The translations under genes were made by a program, and so were the position numbers. The notes under the pieces were generated by a model. The model searched no databases. It was not told where the DNA came from and was given only the letters and a program-made list of their open reading frames with translations. DNA of 28,750 nucleotides, from positions 1 to 28,750 of the forward strand of contig JBDKRC010000150.1 of assembly GCA_039683575.1 (NCBI GenBank), given 5' to 3'. This DNA comes from Armatimonadia bacterium (GTDB lineage: Bacteria > Armatimonadota > Zipacnadia > Zipacnadales > UBA11051). Positions 16,787 to 28,750 of the stretch are shown one piece after another; within the stretch, counting starts at the first letter, position 1, and every line of letters begins with the position of its first letter.

Positions 16787-17215
16787 ATGAAGATCTCAAC
16801 GCGAACACGATACGGGATGCGGGCGATGGCCTGCCTGGCGCAGCACTATGGGCAGGGCCCGTGCAGCGTGCGGGAGATGGCCCAGGCGAACGGGTTGCCC
16901 GTGAAGTACCTTGAGCAGCTATGTGGGACGCTGAAGAACGCGGGCTTGCTGAAGTCGGTACGCGGGGCCGGAGGGGGATACATGCTGGCGCGCCCGCCTG
17001 AACAGATACGGCTGGTTGAGATCTTCGAAGCCCTGGAGGGCGCTCTCGCTCCGGTAAGGTGCCTGGAGAACGGCAAGCCCTGCCGCCGGCGGGGCAATTG
17101 CCTCACACGGGGTATCTGGGAGCATCTGGCGGACGTGATGCGCGGGGCCCTGGAGGAGCAGACGCTGGCGGATGTCCTGTCGGGAGCGAAGGCCGAGCTA
17201 ACGAGTGTGAAATAG
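16787..17215 (+). CDS. Rrf2 family transcriptional regulator (IscR/CymR-like, three Cys)
   Basis: MKISTRTRYG, YLEQL, SVRGAGGGYML, EALEG, and C-X6-C-X5-C. Confidence 0.92.
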   Translation: MKISTRTRYGMRAMACLAQHYGQGPCSVREMAQANGLPVKYLEQLCGTLKNAGLLKSVRGAGGGYMLARPPEQIRLVEIFEALEGALAPVRCLENGKPCRRRGNCLTRGIWEHLADVMRGALEEQTLADVLSGAKAELTSVK

Positions 17216-17249
17216 TAGCCGTGACTCGAACTGGGAATGAGGTAGAACC

Positions 17250-18176
17250 ATGGGACGAATCTTCAATGACATCACCGAGACAATCGGGAACACGCCACTG
17301 GTGAGGCTGGGGAAGGTAGCCGCGGGGCTTCCTGGCGAGGTTCTGGGGAAAGCGGAGTTCTTCAACCCCTTGTCGAGTGTGAAGGACCGGATCGGACTGA
17401 GCATGATTGAGGCGGCGGAGGCTGAGGGGAAGATCGGGCCGCAAACGACGATTATCGAGCCGACAAGCGGCAATACGGGCATTGCACTGGCGTTTGTATG
17501 CGCGGCGCGAGGCTACAGGCTGATCCTGACAATGCCGGACTCCATGAGCATTGAGCGACGACAGCTCGTGGCGGCGCTGGGGGCGGAGGTGGTCCTGACG
17601 CCTGCGGCTGAGGGCATGCAGGGCTCCATAAACCGCGCGAATGAGTTGGCCGAGGAACTTGGGGATGCCTTCATACCGTTGCAGTTCAGTAACCCCGCGA
17701 ACCCCGAAGCCCACCGGAAGACTACCGCCGAGGAGATCTGGCGCGACACAGACGGCGCGGTGGATGTGATCGTGGCCGCGGTGGGCACCGGCGGGACCAT
17801 TACCGGGATAGCAGAGGTACTCAAAGAGCGCAAGCCGGGCGTCAAGGCCATTGCAGTCGAACCCAGCGCCTCGCCGATGCTCTCGGGGGGCAAGCCGGGG
17901 CCGCACAAGATCCAGGGGATCGGCGCCAATTTCATCCCCGAAATCCTGCGGCGGGACCTGCTGGATGAGGTTATCAAGGTCGAGAACAACGATGCCTTTG
18001 AGATGGCGCGGCGGCTGGCGCGCGAGGAGGGTATCCTGTGCGGCATCTCAGCGGGGGCGAACGTGTGGGCGGCAATGCAGGTGGCGGCGCGGGCGGAGAG
18101 CGAGGGGAAGGTCATTGTGACGATACTGTGTGACACCGGGGAGAGGTACCTGAGTACCGAGTTGTTCAAAGCGTAG
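17250..18176 (+). CDS. cysK: Cysteine synthase A (O-acetylserine sulfhydrylase)
   Basis: IGNTPLV, SVKDRIG (PLP Lys), [30 protein letters not shown]. Confidence 0.97.
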
Positions 18177-18263
18177 GGCGGCCAACAGCCGCCATGGAGT
18201 ACCGGCCCCTCGTGGCCGTGCGCGATAGTCTCGGATTTTGTGCCTGAAGACAGGGAGTTGCCC

Positions 18264-18977
18264 ATGTTCGGACGACTACGTGAGGATATTCAGACGGTGT
18301 TCGCCAAGGATCCTGCGGCGCGAAGTACGCTGGAGGTCTTGCTCTGCTACCCCGGCCTGCATGCGATCTGGTACCACCGGGTATCGAATTGGTTCTGGCG
18401 GCATGGCTTCAAGCTCACCGGGCGACTCATCTCCCACTGGGGCCGGGGGCGCACCGGCATTGAGATACACCCCGGCGCTACCATCGGGCGGCGGTTCTTC
18501 ATTGACCACGGCATGGGTGTCGTGATCGGCGAGACGGCGGAGATCGGTGAGGATGTCCTGATGTACCACCAGGTAACACTGGGCGGGACGTCGCTGGAGA
18601 AGAAGAAGCGTCACCCGACCATCGGCAACAACGTGGTCATCGGCGCGGGGGCGAAGCTACTGGGCGCGTTCGAGGTCGGAGAGGGCGCCAAGATCGGGGC
18701 GGGCTCGGTAGTCATCAAGGCAGTGCCGCCGGGGGCGACGGTAGTCGGCATACCAGGGCGGGTAGTCGAGGAGGCCAAGCCGCGGCCGGTAGTGGACCTG
18801 GAACATGCTGCGTTACCCGATCCGGTGGCCGAGGCGATCAGCAACGTCCTCAAGTCGCAGGAGCATCTGAACGAGTGCTTCGGGCAGTTGCAGCGTAACA
18901 TGACGAACATGGCGGAGACGGTGGCGAAGCATCATCCGGAGACCAAAGCGGAATCGGGCAACGGCGCCGTTGAGTGA
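18264..18977 (+). CDS. cysE: Serine O-acetyltransferase
   Basis: [41 protein letters not shown], hexapeptide repeats. ATG 18264 follows GGGAG. Confidence 0.96.
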
Positions 18978-19088
18978 GGCGGCGAACTGGGACCGGGCGA
19001 GAGTCCCCGCGCCGTTGGTTGCCATTCTCAGGGAAGCGGAGAGTTCCCGGCGTCCGCCCGGTGCTTGGCAGCGCGAGAGACTTCGCCC

Positions 19089-19772
19089 CTAGAAGTCTTC
19101 TTCTAACGGGGGGTTGACGACGATGCCAGCGGGGCCGGGCTGGCCATTGCGCTGGTCAAGCAGGCGGACCTTGCGCCCCTCTACTTGCAGCCGGCCCTCG
19201 GCGAACCATTTGATCGCCTGCGGGTAGATGCGGTGCTCCTGCTCAAGGATGCGGGCTGCGAGGTCGTCACCGCTGTCGGTGTCGAGAACGGGGACGACAG
19301 CCTGGATGATGATGGGGCCCGTGTCAAACTCGGCCTCGGCGAAGTGAACGGTGGTGCCGGCGATCTTCACGCCGTAGTCAACTGCCATTTGCTGCACTCC
19401 GACGCCGGGGAAGGCCGGGAGCAGGGCCGGATGGATGTTCATGACGGCCCGGGGATACGCCTCGAGCAGCCCTGGGCCCGTGATGCGCATATAGCCGGCG
19501 AGGCAAACAAGCTGGACGTCGTATTCCCGGAGCGTTTCGACCTGCTTGCGGTCGGCTTCTTCCCAACCAGGGGTGCCAGTTTTGGCAACCGGGATGTGTA
19601 TGGCGGGAATACCATAGCGCCTGGCGCGCTCTAAGGAAAAAGCATCCGCACGGTCGCTGATTACTACTACGACGCGCGCCGGGACCTTCCCGCTTTCGCA
19701 GGCGTCGATAATGGATTGAAGATCGGTGCCGCCGCCAGAGGCGAAGACACCGACACGAAGCAAGTCCGTCAC
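19089..19772 (-). CDS. purN: Phosphoribosylglycinamide formyltransferase
   Basis: VFASGGGTDLQ, LAGYMRI, NIHPALLPAFPG, GTTVHF, DTGPIIIQ, EHRIYP. True start is GTG 19772 after GAGGGAG; the ORF-track extension is spurious. Confidence 0.95.
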   Translation of the reverse strand: MTDLLRVGVFASGGGTDLQSIIDACESGKVPARVVVVISDRADAFSLERARRYGIPAIHIPVAKTGTPGWEEADRKQVETLREYDVQLVCLAGYMRITGPGLLEAYPRAVMNIHPALLPAFPGVGVQQMAVDYGVKIAGTTVHFAEAEFDTGPIIIQAVVPVLDTDSGDDLAARILEQEHRIYPQAIKWFAEGRLQVEGRKVRLLDQRNGQPGPAGIVVNPPLEEDF

Positions 19773-19908
19773 GTGATGGTACGCTCCCTCGATGAAACTG
19801 TGAGCGGAGGTTCCACGCCAAGGGATTGAGCACCTGCAGAGGCGGGGATCGGAAATCAGGAACCTCTGGGCAGCCACTGGACTGACCAGGGGAGAAAGAA
19901 GGGACCTG

Positions 19909-20400
19909 ATGAAAGGGCAGCAGTTGGCAAACGGAATCGTACGGACCGCGCTGATGGTACTGGTTGTGGCAGCCGCACTCCCGGCTCTGGCGCAGGAACA
20001 GGGCCAGCTTGAGACGCTGATGAATGCCACCGGCTTGAAGATGGAGAAGCTCGAGGCGGACACGTGGAAAGTGCCGTTCGACGGGGACAACGGCAAGACG
20101 CTTGAGGTCTACGTCACCTATAGCAACGATAAGAAGCTATCGGCCTTGATCTTCTGCACGGTGGTGGATCGAGACGCAAACTTCCAGTTCAACCGTGAGG
20201 TACTGGCGAGAGCCATGGTGATCAGCAACGATCAACCGTTCATCAAGATCGTGCTCGACGCCGATCACGGAGATCTGGACTGCCAGACGGAAGCATACAT
20301 GCCGACCTTGACCGCCGAGGCGCTGAAGATGTACCTGGATACGGTGGCGTCCATATCGGACCAGTACGGGGCAGAGTTGAACCAGCTCGCGGGGCAGTAG
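19909..20400 (+). CDS. YbjN/T3SS-chaperone-fold protein with signal peptide (paralog 1)
   Basis: Signal peptide ...LPALA-QE. Pattern 'L...M..SN..PF.K.VLD..GDL.....Y...LT...L..YL..VASI.D' resembles YbjN. Confidence 0.7.
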   Translation: MKGQQLANGIVRTALMVLVVAAALPALAQEQGQLETLMNATGLKMEKLEADTWKVPFDGDNGKTLEVYVTYSNDKKLSALIFCTVVDRDANFQFNREVLARAMVISNDQPFIKIVLDADHGDLDCQTEAYMPTLTAEALKMYLDTVASISDQYGAELNQLAGQ

Positions 20401-20480
20401 AAGATGAGGAGGAAAGCCCTCCCGGCGCGTGGAATAGTGTGGCGAGCGGCGGAGGGGAAGGCGCAGTCGGCAGAGAGGAA

Positions 20481-20972
20481 ATGATGAGGCAGATGATTGG
20501 AAGCAAACGAACAATATTCGCGTGCCTGCTCGGGCTTGTCCTGGCGGTTGGCACGGCCACGGCCGAGGAGCAGGAGCCACTCGCAAAGCTCCTCGGCACT
20601 TGCGGGCTCGAAGTAACCAAGATCGGGGACGATGCGTGGAACATCCCGTTCGACGTGGGCAAGGACAAGCCGTTGGATGTAATCGTGTCATACCACGACG
20701 ACGAGAAGAAGTTTGCGTTGATCTACACGACGGTCGTGGACCGCAAGGACAACTTCCAGTTTAACCAGAAGGTGCTGCAGGAGTGCATGAAGCTCAACGG
20801 CGAGTACCCGGTGGCGAAGCTCGCCCTCGATCCTCCCGCCGGCAACATTGACTGCGAGATACAGACCTACATCCCGGGCCTGACTGCAGAGGAGCTCAAA
20901 CTGTACTGCAGCTTTGTGGCGAGTATCGCGGATGACAACAAGGCCAATCTGGAGCAGTTGGCGGGGCAGTAG
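20481..20972 (+). CDS. YbjN/T3SS-chaperone-fold protein with signal peptide (paralog 2)
   Basis: Signal peptide ...GTATA-EE. Gapless alignment to paralog 1 (about 64/136 identical by manual count), both ending QLAGQ. Confidence 0.7.
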   Translation: MMRQMIGSKRTIFACLLGLVLAVGTATAEEQEPLAKLLGTCGLEVTKIGDDAWNIPFDVGKDKPLDVIVSYHDDEKKFALIYTTVVDRKDNFQFNQKVLQECMKLNGEYPVAKLALDPPAGNIDCEIQTYIPGLTAEELKLYCSFVASIADDNKANLEQLAGQ

Positions 20973-20996
20973 GGCTGCAAGCGGCGACAACAAAGC

Positions 20997-21025
20997 AAAA
21001 GGCCTCCGCGTGGCGGAGGCCTTTT
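20997..21025. terminator. Bidirectional intrinsic terminator
   Basis: AAAA-GGCCTCCGC-gtg-GCGGAGGCC-TTTT between convergent genes. Confidence 0.9.
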
Positions 21026-21065
21026 TGTTTGTCGGGTTGGGAGCGGGCGAGAGGCCCGCACCATG

Positions 21066-21473
21066 TTAGAAGGTCAGTTCCATGGCCCGCGGTGGGCAGC
21101 GGGGGACGCAGAGCTCGCACGCAATGCACTTGTCGGAGTCAAAGCCGACCTTCCTGGTCTCCAGGTCAATGAACAGGGCGTTGGTCGGACAGGAGGTGAT
21201 GCAGGCGCCGCAGTCGGTGCAACGCTGTTCGTTACGGACTACGTCGCGCGCGAGAGGCTGCACGATAACTCCCCGCTTCTTCAGGTTTCTGACGGCCGTG
21301 TCGAGCTTGCGATCCTCGCCGGTGAGGCCCAGAACCATAAGGCCCTCGCGGTCCGGCGTGATGCTCGCACGCAGGATACTGAAGTCCAGATCGTACGCCT
21401 TGACCGTCTCGGAGATGATCGGTTCGTCAATTAGTGTCTGCGGAAAGCGCAGAACCAGTCGCACTGTCTTCAA
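21066..21473 (-). CDS. NIL domain + 2x[4Fe-4S] ferredoxin (MA1822-like partner of homocysteine synthase)
   Basis: N-terminal NIL-like domain (EPIIS...YDLDFSILRASI) and two CxxCxxCxxxCP motifs. TTG start directly follows the upstream TAG, with SD AAGGAGG inside the upstream gene. Confidence 0.9.
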   Translation of the reverse strand: MKTVRLVLRFPQTLIDEPIISETVKAYDLDFSILRASITPDREGLMVLGLTGEDRKLDTAVRNLKKRGVIVQPLARDVVRNEQRCTDCGACITSCPTNALFIDLETRKVGFDSDKCIACELCVPRCPPRAMELTF

Positions 21474-22694
21474 CTAACCCACCTCCTTGACAGACTTGAG
21501 CGGGCGCTCGTTGAGTAGTTTGAACTTGACGTCAGAGTCGGCGGAAGGCAACGTCTCAACGGGCTCGGTCAGCAGGAACTGGCCGGTGTCGATCTGCGAC
21601 TTGAGTTCGAGAGCGATTTCTCGCGCCCGGGGGTAGCTGGACAGCGGGTTGGTCGGGATCGTCTTGCCCTCGACTTCGATGCTGCCGCTCTTCAGCTCCG
21701 CGTAGGAGATGTGCCCCAGTGGCCCACGCTCCCCGTACGCATAGCCGCGGCTGTAGTCAACCACGGGCGCGAGGATCTCCGCGTCGGAGACCGCAGTATA
21801 GCGGGCCATGTCGGCGTCGAGGATCGGGATCGGTATGCCGATGCCAAGCGCCAGCGAAACGCCGTAACCATACATGCTCACACCGACCACGTAGCGGGGG
21901 TTCATCGCTTTGAGGTCGCCGACCGTCGCGATGGTGCCGGCGCCGCCCTTAGGCACGCCGTTTTCACTGCGCGCGCTGGCGGGATCGTGCTGGGTGCCCT
22001 GCCAGAAGATATAGCCCTGCGCACCGCCGATGAAGATGCGCGACCCGATGCCGATGGTGCGGAAATAGGGGTCATTGAGCAGCGGCGAAAGCTGGCCGGC
22101 CGAGCAGTAGCCCGCCGAGCCGAGGCTCTTCTTGAGCACGCCCATGTAGGTATACAGGTCGCGGTCCTTTGAGAGGTTCACCGCGACATTGTAGTTCTGG
22201 TAGGCGTTGCGGGGGTTGCAGATGAACGCCTGGTTGAGGTCCTTAAGGCGCAGTAGCGTCTCAAGCTCGCGGCGCGGGTAGCAGTCCGTGCCGTAGCTCT
22301 CGGCACGCAGCAGCACATCGCGGCCCGCCACCAGGTCGGCGATGACGTGCGCTCCGCCGTAGCGGAACTCGCCCGGATGATTGCGGTTCAGCGGATCGCC
22401 CTCAACGACCTCTGTGGCGCCGATGTAGCAGTCCACAGCGGCGATGCCGGCATACGCGGGGACGTCGTTGAGCCACACCTTGCTCATCCTCATCCTGGGC
22501 TTGGTGTGCCCAAAGTTGAGGAAGGCGCCGGATGAACACATCGGGCCGAAGGTGCCGGTGGTGACGACGTCAACCGTCTTCGCAGCTTTCTTCGCGCCCT
22601 GTTCGGCGACTATGCCGATCATGTCCTCGGCGGTCACGACGACCGCCTGGCCATTCTTAATCTTCTCGTTGATCTCTGCGACTGTCTTAGCCAT
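21474..22694 (-). CDS. Homocysteine biosynthesis enzyme / L-aspartate semialdehyde sulfurtransferase (COG1900/DUF39, MA1821/MJ0100-like), without CBS domains
   Basis: KTVAEINEKIK.G.AVVVTAE, VDVVTTGTFGPMCSSG, GTDCYPR, NPRNAYQNY, GQLSPLLNDP, GIGIPIPILD; 406 aa. Confidence 0.92.
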   Translation of the reverse strand: MAKTVAEINEKIKNGQAVVVTAEDMIGIVAEQGAKKAAKTVDVVTTGTFGPMCSSGAFLNFGHTKPRMRMSKVWLNDVPAYAGIAAVDCYIGATEVVEGDPLNRNHPGEFRYGGAHVIADLVAGRDVLLRAESYGTDCYPRRELETLLRLKDLNQAFICNPRNAYQNYNVAVNLSKDRDLYTYMGVLKKSLGSAGYCSAGQLSPLLNDPYFRTIGIGSRIFIGGAQGYIFWQGTQHDPASARSENGVPKGGAGTIATVGDLKAMNPRYVVGVSMYGYGVSLALGIGIPIPILDADMARYTAVSDAEILAPVVDYSRGYAYGERGPLGHISYAELKSGSIEVEGKTIPTNPLSSYPRAREIALELKSQIDTGQFLLTEPVETLPSADSDVKFKLLNERPLKSVKEVG

Positions 22695-27036: not shown

Positions 27037-27798
27037 ATGAACGAGCAATCACTGAAGCGTCTAGCCCCCACCGTGGCGGCCCTGCTGGGCCTTCCTGCGC
27101 CCCAGTTAGCCACCGAGGCACCGTTGGATGAACTCGTGGCCGATCTCGCCCCGGCAGAGCGAGTGGCAGTGCTGGCGCCGGATGCGCTGGGCTGGTACCC
27201 GTTTGGGCTGTGGCGGCATGAGATGCCCTATCTGGACGGGCTGCACAAGTCGCGGAGCATGGTCCTGCGCGCAGTGATGCCCACCATCACGCCGGTGAAC
27301 TTCTCCACGATGTTAACCGGCGCGGAGAAGGCAGGCCATGGCGTAGGGACCTTCAACGACAGCTTTGTCTGTGAGACCCTGTTTGACGTGCTGCGCCGCG
27401 AGGGACACCAGAGCGCCGGAGTGGGGCAGAAGGGCTATACGGGCGGAGAGCTGCTCGGACGCTTTGCGGATCTGTGGGGCAAGGCAGAGAGCAATACCGA
27501 CGCCGAGGTGGAAGAGATTGCCCTGCGCTTTGCCACCGAGCACCGCCCCAAATTCATGATCGTACAGCTTGGGACGACCGACGACGTCTTCCACAAGTAT
27601 GGGCCGACCTCGACGGAAGTGCTGCCGGTAGTGCGCGAGACCGACGAGCGGCTACGCCGGATGGTCGCGACCTTGAAGAATCTAGGGTACGCGATCATCG
27701 TGACGGCGGATCATGGGCAACATGACGCGGAGGGCGGCGGAGGCTCGCACGGGCAGGAGCGGGATGAAGATGCGCTGGTGCCGTTGACGTGGTTGTGA
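27037..27798 (+). CDS. Alkaline phosphatase superfamily protein (NPP/PglZ-like)
   Basis: APDALG, PTIT...STMLTG (Thr nucleophile), TDDVFHKYGP, VTADHGQH, final HG. Confidence 0.88.
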   Translation: MNEQSLKRLAPTVAALLGLPAPQLATEAPLDELVADLAPAERVAVLAPDALGWYPFGLWRHEMPYLDGLHKSRSMVLRAVMPTITPVNFSTMLTGAEKAGHGVGTFNDSFVCETLFDVLRREGHQSAGVGQKGYTGGELLGRFADLWGKAESNTDAEVEEIALRFATEHRPKFMIVQLGTTDDVFHKYGPTSTEVLPVVRETDERLRRMVATLKNLGYAIIVTADHGQHDAEGGGGSHGQERDEDALVPLTWL

Positions 27799-27804
27799 GA
27801 ACAG

Positions 27805-27905
27805 GCAGGGGGACGCAACAAGTCTTGTCATTCTGAGCGACGCGAAGAATCCCAAAGCAGGGGCATGCAACAAGCCTTGTCATTCTGAGCGAAGCGAAGA
27901 ATCCC
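27805..27905 (+). repeat. Tandem direct duplication (49-bp unit, 52-bp period) carrying REP-like GTCATTCTGAGCGA.GCGAAGAATC
   Basis: Units 27805-27853 and 27857-27905 differ at 4 positions; core is related to the arms at 3210-3277. Confidence 0.8.
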
Positions 27906-27975
27906 CCGGGTGCGGACAGAGCCTTTGTTTCACGTCCCACCATGGCATGGCACGTGGAGGGGAGCAGGAAACAAG

Positions 27976-28007
27976 AAAACGCCACAGCCCGAAGGCTGTG
28001 GCGTTTT
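27976..28007. terminator. Bidirectional intrinsic terminator
   Basis: AAAA-CGCCACAGCC-cgaa-GGCTGTGGCG-TTTT (UUCG loop on the minus strand) between convergent genes. Confidence 0.9.
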
Positions 28008-28026
28008 GGCTAACCAAAGCAGGCCG

Positions 28027-28635
28027 CTACTGGTAGCGGACCTGGCTGAGACTGTTCTGCTTGAACCACTTGGCGTGGCCGTCGAGGAAGTTGAGGTTCA
28101 TGCCCTCGTTGTGTCGGCAGCCGCCGATCATGCGAGGGTTGGTGTGGTCAATCATACCGGTGGCGGTGACAACGTAGATGTAGGGGCGCTGGATGCCCTC
28201 AGTGACCATCGCCGTCTCCGCGGGGTACTGGAAGAAGCTCTGGGCATTGTTGTACAGGTAGTAGTTGTACATATAGCTGAGTTGCTGAGTGGGGTAGGTG
28301 CCCGGCAGGTAGTTTGAGCCGAAGGTGTGAACGTCTATGGGAGGATTCGCGTTGGAGATGCAGTCACGCAGCGAATCGCTGGGGCAGAGGAAGACCTGGA
28401 CGTTCTTCACGTAGGGATAGATGGCGTCAACGTAACCGCCATGGGGGTAACCCGGCCAGGCGCTGTCGCCCCAGGCCAGGCTGTCGCCCTTGGGAAAGCG
28501 CTCGTCGTAGTCCTGGCAATACTGCAGGAACGCTACGCCGATCTGCTTCATGTTGTTAAGACAGGATGATTGCCGGGCCTTTTCGCGGGCCTTGGCGAAG
28601 ACTGGGAAGAGGATCGCTGCCAAAATGGCAATGAT
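28027..28635 (-). CDS. DUF1559 / H-X9-DG prepilin-like protein lacking its native N-terminal methylation motif (interrupted or 5'-replaced)
   Basis: IIAILAAILFPVFAKAREKARQSSCLNNMKQIG, QDYDERFP, FLCPSD, HNEGMNLNFLDGHAKW. Family similarity stops abruptly upstream of codon ATC at 28635; an in-frame TTG lies at 28677. Confidence 0.88.
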   Translation of the reverse strand: MIAILAAILFPVFAKAREKARQSSCLNNMKQIGVAFLQYCQDYDERFPKGDSLAWGDSAWPGYPHGGYVDAIYPYVKNVQVFLCPSDSLRDCISNANPPIDVHTFGSNYLPGTYPTQQLSYMYNYYLYNNAQSFFQYPAETAMVTEGIQRPYIYVVTATGMIDHTNPRMIGGCRHNEGMNLNFLDGHAKWFKQNSLSQVRYQ

Positions 28636-28673
28636 GTAGCCGCTGAAAAACAGCAAGCAGGTATCGTTTTGTC

Positions 28674-28750
28674 TCAAGGGAATCCTTGGTTGAGGTGATC
28701 TGCTTGCAGCACAAGTCTCAGCCCCATGCGCCCTCGCTCTACGACGACGT
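28674..28750 (-). CDS. 3' end of an upstream ORF, possibly a large serine recombinase C-terminus
   Basis: Open frame from the window edge: VVVERGRMGLRLVLQADHLNQGFP-TGA. Only 24 codons visible. Confidence 0.3.
   Translation of the reverse strand, partial: VVVERGRMGLRLVLQADHLNQGFP

Follow-up and report, generated by a model that had tools for sequence, protein, structure and literature searches.

Pilin-like DUF1559 genes are interrupted at one codon boundary by DNA that is probably the end of a multicopy mobile element

The DNA analyzed here (the window) is a whole contig of 28,750 nt. Its last kilobase carries, on the minus strand, the 3' part of a gene for a DUF1559 (H-X9-DG) pilin-like protein, and the other genes in the window are ordinary metabolic and regulatory ones. 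When read from the ATC codon at 28635-28633, the frame of the DUF1559 gene (IIAILAAILFPVFAKAREKARQ... / IIAILAAILFPVFAKAREKARQSSCLNN...) is open to a stop codon at 28029-28027, and a terminator-like hairpin follows (Table 1). The gene product matches Pfam family PF07596 (DUF1559) with an E-value of 1.5e-12 and a score of 48.6 bits against a cut-off of 23.3, and it keeps the C-terminal H-X9-DG motif (H, nine residues, DG; RHNEGMNLNFLDGHAKW / RHNEGMNLNFLDGH). The prepilin N_methyl domain (PF07963), with its G/FTLIE cleavage and methylation motif, is absent from this product in the Pfam search; the sequence begins IIAIL, and the part missing from the gene at 28027-28635 is the prepilin leader together with GFTLIELLVVIA. 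The window's own protein (P0270, 216 aa) is annotated from a TTG start for which no ribosome-binding site is visible. Within the 28,750 nt, there is neither a second DUF1559 gene nor an orphan 5' half ending in ...GFTLIELLVVIA.

Two further features of the window were recorded. A group of genes for sulfur amino-acid metabolism occupies 16787-22694 (listed in Table 1). In the gap between a convergent phosphodiesterase-like gene (27037-27798) and the DUF1559 terminator, positions 27805-27905 hold two tandem copies of a 49-nt repeat that are 92% identical, lie 52 nt apart, and contain ...CTTGTCATTCTGAGCGA(A/C)GCGAAGAATCCC. This motif resembles a small repeat that is found in many environmental bacterial genomes and is often mis-called as short ORFs.

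Table 1. Coordinates of the features discussed in the text; a slash in a sequence marks the junction.
Feature	Position	Strand	Remarks
Rrf2 regulator	16787-17215		sulfur amino-acid group
PLP-dependent cysteine-synthase-like gene	17250-18176		sulfur amino-acid group
Serine acetyltransferase-like hexapeptide protein	18240-18977		sulfur amino-acid group
Formyl transferase	19089-20096		sulfur amino-acid group
Homocysteine biosynthesis HcyBio enzyme	21474-22694		sulfur amino-acid group; E 3.4e-150
Terminator-like hairpin of the DUF1559 gene	28007-27976	-	14 pairs, 4-nt loop, T-rich tail
DUF1559 / H-X9-DG pilin-like gene, 3' part	28027-28635	-	202 codons from IIAILAAILFPVF to the last residue, plus stop
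Junction of gene and foreign DNA	28635-28636	.	+ strand: ...GGCAATGAT/GTAGCCGCTG...
Foreign DNA to the contig end	28636-28750	.	115 nt; probable end of a multicopy mobile element
Terminal 15 nt of the foreign DNA	28636-28650	.	encode FFSGY on the strand of the gene; best conserved part across element variants
Frame proposed earlier as a recombinase tail (VVVERGRMGLRLVLQADHLNQGFP, then stop)	28674-28748	-	judged non-coding
Probable start of the element's own gene	28686-28750	+	reads out of the contig, antisense to the DUF1559 gene

Across the junction, the minus strand reads ...TTTTTCAGCGGCTAC/ATCATTGCC (onward ATCATTGCCATTTTGGCAGCG...), with TAC at 28638-28636 and ATC at 28635-28633. On the plus strand, the insertion point is located between ...GGCAATGAT and the complement of the ...VVIA codons. 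The head of the gene is truly missing, not diverged, since a near-identical protein from the same 90% identity cluster, P0269, is identical to the window gene product at 201/202 positions over the body and keeps an intact head that starts MAKRGFTLIELLVVIA/IIAIL. A further protein with an intact head, P0001, is 96% identical and starts MARRGFTLIELLVVIA/IIAIL. The break point falls precisely at the boundary of ...VVIA and IIAIL.... At a position that is conserved in P0269, P0001, and others, the window gene has an Ala-to-Pro change. An earlier note on this DNA had stated that the gene is intact from IIAILAAILFPVF to its stop and terminator, that the leader and GFTLIELLVVIA are gone, and that unrelated DNA takes their place at 28636/28635, and all three observations were reproduced.

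The contig ends 115 nt past the junction, within the foreign DNA and not at the motif. Since assembly continued past the motif and halted only within the foreign sequence, the repeat at which it broke is the latter and not the motif. The length of 115 nt is also close to k-1 of a large assembler k-mer, which fits a unique flank entering a repeat. Comparison of the 115 nt with the rest of the window found nothing beyond shared 11-mers, a blastn search of a plasmid collection returned one 22-nt chance match, and a scan of genome contigs with the last 20 nt of the foreign DNA returned 9 loci in unrelated taxa, with chance matches of only 20-21 nt. An Rfam search of positions 27800-28750 on both strands at E-values up to 10 gave four chance-level matches, none of them in the foreign DNA, and on this basis a group II intron or other known RNA was ruled out. 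The 115 nt folds no better than shuffled sequences (z-scores of 0.12 on the plus strand and -1.58 on the minus strand, with an 8-bp stem formed by 28653-28660 and 28701-28708), and no inverted repeat is visible near the junction. A structured element end was considered and dropped, as the hairpins guessed from the proteins of other copies are out of register with the window copy.

The earlier note had drawn attention to a frame in the foreign DNA that is co-oriented with the DUF1559 gene and ends in VVVERGRMGLRLVLQADHLNQGFP, and had suggested that it is the tail of a large serine recombinase. The frame is present, with its stop at 28676-28674, 38-39 nt before the junction, but its composition and conservation do not support the recombinase assignment. 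G or C occupies the third codon position (GC3) in 14/24 codons, as compared with 78-86% in five real genes of the window. The 24-residue tail has no Pfam or NCBIfam match at E-values up to 10, which is weak evidence for so short a piece. At the position aligned to the stop of this frame, P0248 (start MQRRRPGQVLVLQRDHLEPRFPEVAIIPSPFFSGY; P0122 and P0124 share its upstream peptide) has a Glu and no stop, and its frame continues into the gene. In a hand alignment, window frame 3 (...ERGRMGLRLVLQADHLNQGFP, a stop, then DKTIPAC...) equals P0248 at 14/27 aligned positions, and a 2-nt shift is needed in the window copy to reach FFSGY thereafter. Because P0248 lacks the stop and the window copy requires this shift, the tail frame is not conserved as coding sequence; the alignment indicates that the foreign DNA of the window and the DNA upstream of the P0248 gene body are homologous non-coding DNA. 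Among 46 longer matches there was no fusion of a recombinase to DUF1559, and two of the four that were inspected are longer beheaded paralogs.

The plus strand contains an open frame between 28647 and 28750, with candidate starts at TTG 28686, GTG 28695, and TTG 28704, the last of which is preceded by a Shine-Dalgarno-like GAGGTGAT at 28692-28699. From 28686 onward its GC3 is 18/21, coding-like when set against the 78-86% of the real genes. The 34-aa product matched no Pfam or NCBIfam family and none of 1.84 billion representative proteins, the latter result being of little weight in either direction. Judged by composition and start signals, this plus-strand frame is probably the start of a putative element gene that points out of the contig. 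A block matching GAGGTGATC...TTGCAGCAC would be compatible with the residues that are conserved in P0248.

Homologs were collected by a homolog search, a search with the first 64 residues, and cluster look-ups. Among the 334 DUF1559 proteins sampled in this way, 48 have foreign residues joined directly before IIAILAAILFPVF, that is, a break at the same codon (hereafter called beheaded); the sample is query-biased, as the queries contained foreign residues, and this count shows recurrence and not frequency. In the less biased top 120 of the homolog search, 3/120 are beheaded. The remainder of the 334 comprises 270 intact proteins, 2 plain truncations at contig edges, 13 that fell outside the pattern test, and one entry, the 34-aa translation of the plus-strand frame, that was passed over because of its length. 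Orphan 5' halves were not found among the 334, an observation of little weight in a sample chosen for the 3' motif. In the 48 beheaded proteins, the last five foreign residues are FFSSH (19), FFSGY (11), FFSSQ (6), FFSRL (4), FFDSH (3), LFSGH (2), or one of three others seen once each. The pattern FFS[GS][YHQ] is common to the element ends, and the residues upstream of it differ by subfamily.

Beheaded proteins come from different paralogs as well as from different lineages. In P0042, P0044, and P0104, all from Armatimonadia assemblies, the bodies are only 46, 43, and 39% identical to the window gene, respectively, yet the heads consist of the same, or nearly the same, foreign residues as in the window, joined at the same place (MRQNDTCLLFFSGY/IIAIL..., with MRQIDPCLLFFSGY in P0104). 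Related versions of the foreign sequence occur at the identical junction in P0122, P0124, and P0248, which are from other lineages. Given the identical junction in 48/334 proteins, the recurrence, as judged from sequences that at all loci other than the window are those of proteins, is far beyond chance. Separately, four different long DUF1559 paralogs (P0158, P0164, P0290, and P0291) share a common head, MVIIAIAHTKKGGGFFSRL/IIAIL..., in which VIIAIA, located 12 codons ahead of the junction, has the look of a scrambled leftover of ...VVIAIIAI. Instead of a full element end, this head may represent a footprint or a short remnant kept in frame.

Beheaded and intact forms of the same gene were compared within 30 clusters (90% identity), each of which holds a beheaded protein. 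Both forms are present in 18/30 clusters, and the intact mates have a normal M..(R/K)GFTLIELLVVIA head and read ...VVIA/IIAIL... across the site at the protein level. Beheaded and intact counterparts include P0122 and P0240, P0124/P0248 and P0249/P0250, P0121 and P0254, P0042 and P0265, and P0044 and P0266. Beheaded P0104 is identical to intact P0267 at 186/189 positions, and beheaded P0154 is identical to intact P0285 at 200/204. The 12/30 clusters without an intact form consist of 9 singletons and 3 that hold beheaded or partial members only, among the members examined in two of these three.

Some beheaded genes were recovered more than once. P0122/P0237/P0243 and P0145/P0281/P0284 each represent one gene from different sources, with point changes in both the body and the foreign part. 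Because the beheaded copies differ by point changes, the junction is inherited in lineages and is not the product of one assembly. The NCBI accessions of P0042, P0044, P0104, and P0154 span less than 2,000, which would fit an origin of all four copies from a single assembly. In P0154, the most conserved motif is altered at two positions (INAIL...PDF); these alterations and the Ala-to-Pro change in the window gene hint at decay. In another comparison, P0104 has the consensus IIAILAAILFPVF where the 98% identical intact P0267 has SIAILAAILFPVV, and 2/4 differences between the two lie within the 13 residues that adjoin the junction. The motif next to the element may travel with the element.

Based on the above results, we consider it likely that the 115 nt form an end of a mobile element that has the size of an insertion sequence, is multicopy, is specific as to both site and orientation, and is inserted between the ...VVIA and IIAIL... 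codons. This reading follows from the fixed junction in many paralogs, the conserved terminal sequence with a diverging interior, the presence or absence of the foreign DNA between close relatives, the several copies with closely spaced accessions (taken to be from one assembly), and a contig that passes the motif and stops within the foreign DNA, as a repeat would cause it to do. The 48 beheaded proteins, from different paralogs, bear out insertion into repeated targets at a single specific sequence and in a single orientation. The earlier note had proposed a serine-recombinase element that uses the conserved pilin motif as its site. The insertion at this motif holds up, with foreign DNA at a fixed point in many paralogs and lineages and with intact alleles in existence, as an element aimed at the motif would predict; the serine-recombinase part finds no support. 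Its other suggestion, that prepilin-like genes swap N-termini among themselves, finds none either: every beheaded gene has the same kind of foreign end and not the head of another gene.

The proposed element would recognize the DNA of the conserved prepilin motif, of which each genome in Armatimonadota contains very many copies that would serve as targets. Its insertion would remove the promoter, the leader, the peptidase site, and Glu5 from the interrupted gene, which would thereby be silenced or would at best yield an unprocessed protein. For the element's own gene, a start 51-69 nt in from the junction is probable, with the gene pointing away from DUF1559. The missing 5' half of the interrupted gene is expected to flank the element on its far side, in a different contig. 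The window itself shows none of the element's body, no transposase or recombinase, no second end, and no target duplication.

It is unlikely that the locus is instead a reversible DNA switch, in which a recombinase would use the motif as a crossover and connect or disconnect the head (promoter, leader, and GFTLIELLVVIA), giving on/off or repertoire switching. The occurrence of both forms of one gene in 18/30 clusters is what a switch would produce, and known pilin switches (Moraxella Piv and R64 Rci) recombine in the conserved N-terminal region that contains the break. The partner DNA, however, is the same kind of foreign end across contigs and not a segment of another gene, and beheaded copies have been retained while strains diverged by point changes, as a stable insertion would be. 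For the window gene, P0042, P0044, P0104, and P0154, the cluster counterparts examined from other accession series are intact, save one partial protein without its N-terminus, and the intact counterparts of these five beheaded genes look like a sign of lineage-specific spread. Neither an inverted repeat nor a recombinase is visible in the window sequence near the junction.

If beheaded genes are expressed, they could have a genuine variant N-terminus, in which the short non-prepilin head M-R-(G)-F-F-S-S-H and IIAIL... form a signal anchor that was spread by gene conversion seeded on the motif. Many beheaded genes keep an in-frame start 2-4 codons before FFS (MRFFSSH, VRGFFSSH, and MRGFFSSQ), FFSxx plus IIAILAAILFPVF is hydrophobic and is followed by AKA, by eye a plausible signal-peptidase site, and the consensus IIAIL...PVF in P0104, compared with SIAIL...PVV in intact P0267, hints that the motif was co-converted. 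We nevertheless regard this explanation as quite improbable: the window copy is without a good start, its upstream frame is non-coding in composition, and the upstream DNA is read in different frames in different copies. The changed motif of P0154 and the Ala-to-Pro change in the window gene are as expected of decay, and the contigs break in the foreign DNA.

An assembly artefact, in which the repeated motif would cause assemblers to join various bodies to one real foreign/IIAIL junction, once per genome, is very improbable, even though the motif is multicopy and all of the records are metagenome assemblies with many short contigs. The contig of the window passes the motif and stops in the foreign DNA, the same beheaded gene has been assembled repeatedly from different sources with point differences, and several subfamilies of the foreign end exist. 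As the paralog bodies are 39-46% identical, long stretches of identical motif DNA would not be expected, judging from the proteins. A one-off pseudogene, in which a single deletion or rearrangement removed the head and placed the gene beside an ordinary divergent gene, would suit the single locus visible in the window and the tendency of large paralog families to decay, but it is scarcely credible when the same junction and foreign sequence occur in other paralogs and related sequences occur in other lineages.

Our best reading is that the mobile element is most like an insertion sequence, with DEDD/bridge-RNA, Y1/TnpB, DDE, tyrosine, and serine recombinase systems as candidates for its enzyme. 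Known site-specific insertion sequences use repeated extragenic sequences as landing pads, and IS110/IS1111 elements also recognize attC sequences. IS110/IS1111 elements, which have a DEDD recombinase and a bridge RNA, insert in one orientation at a specific and typically repeated sequence such as REP, excise scarlessly, and have no long terminal inverted repeats; in the IS1111 group, the left end is short and the guide RNA is located in the right one (PMC11208160). The putative gene start 51-69 nt from the junction would fit such a short left end. The target of these elements is an extragenic repeat, whereas that of the window element would be a conserved protein-coding motif of a paralog family. 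A DEDD recombinase (PF01548/PF02371), a bridge RNA, and a core dinucleotide were not seen in the 115 nt of the element that lie on the contig.

IS200/IS605 elements insert by a short fixed motif on one strand, without duplication and with precise excision, and TnpB with its guide RNA cuts the empty site, after which repair copies the element back (10.1101/2023.03.14.532601; 10.1101/2023.11.20.567912). By analogy, homing of the TnpB type could carry an element between paralogs that share the flanking motif. The plus-strand flank at the junction ends ...AATGAT and is fixed since the target is fixed; we take it to resemble the TTGAT motif of ISDra2. A Y1 transposase, TnpB, and a guide RNA, as in IS200/IS605 elements, were not seen in the 115 nt, and, as regards a subterminal hairpin, the one near the end is not significant.

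Serine-recombinase elements are known to interrupt genes, as skin does in sigK and a phi-105-like element does in comK. These cases and the window element are alike in that the element divides a gene, which precise excision could make whole again. The skin and phi-105-like elements are single-copy, large, and confined to a unique site, whereas the window element appears to be present in several copies per genome and in many paralogs. In the Moraxella Piv inversion and the R64 shufflon, recombination in or next to the conserved N-terminal pilin region changes the pilin body that is expressed. Those systems combine a constant head with alternative bodies at one locus, whereas the beheaded bodies lie on separate contigs and share the foreign DNA to which they are joined.

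Going beyond the proposed mobile element as such, we put forward tentatively, as possible but speculative, that a family of such elements is specialized on a codon boundary in the prepilin motif of DUF1559 genes and spreads among the paralogs. It would possibly be RNA-guided, by a bridge RNA or by homing of the TnpB type with repair from a filled paralog, and may also turn genes off reversibly and so alter which pilin-like surface proteins a cell has at its disposal. Such reversibility is possible because the empty-site alleles look scarless at the protein level. A literature search at the level of titles found no description of insertions in DUF1559 genes or prepilin motifs.

If the proposed element is real, its landing pad would be of a new kind, namely a conserved coding motif of a paralog family that is among the largest in Armatimonadota and related phyla. 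The element would then explain why DUF1559 proteins annotated without a prepilin domain recur, and why contigs break beside DUF1559 genes in metagenome assemblies. Its target, about 20-40 nt long, conserved, and present in many natural variants, would supply naturally occurring data on how the element's enzyme, RNA-guided or not, recognizes it. If excision is precise, the element would be a candidate switch for the function of the DUF1559 family.
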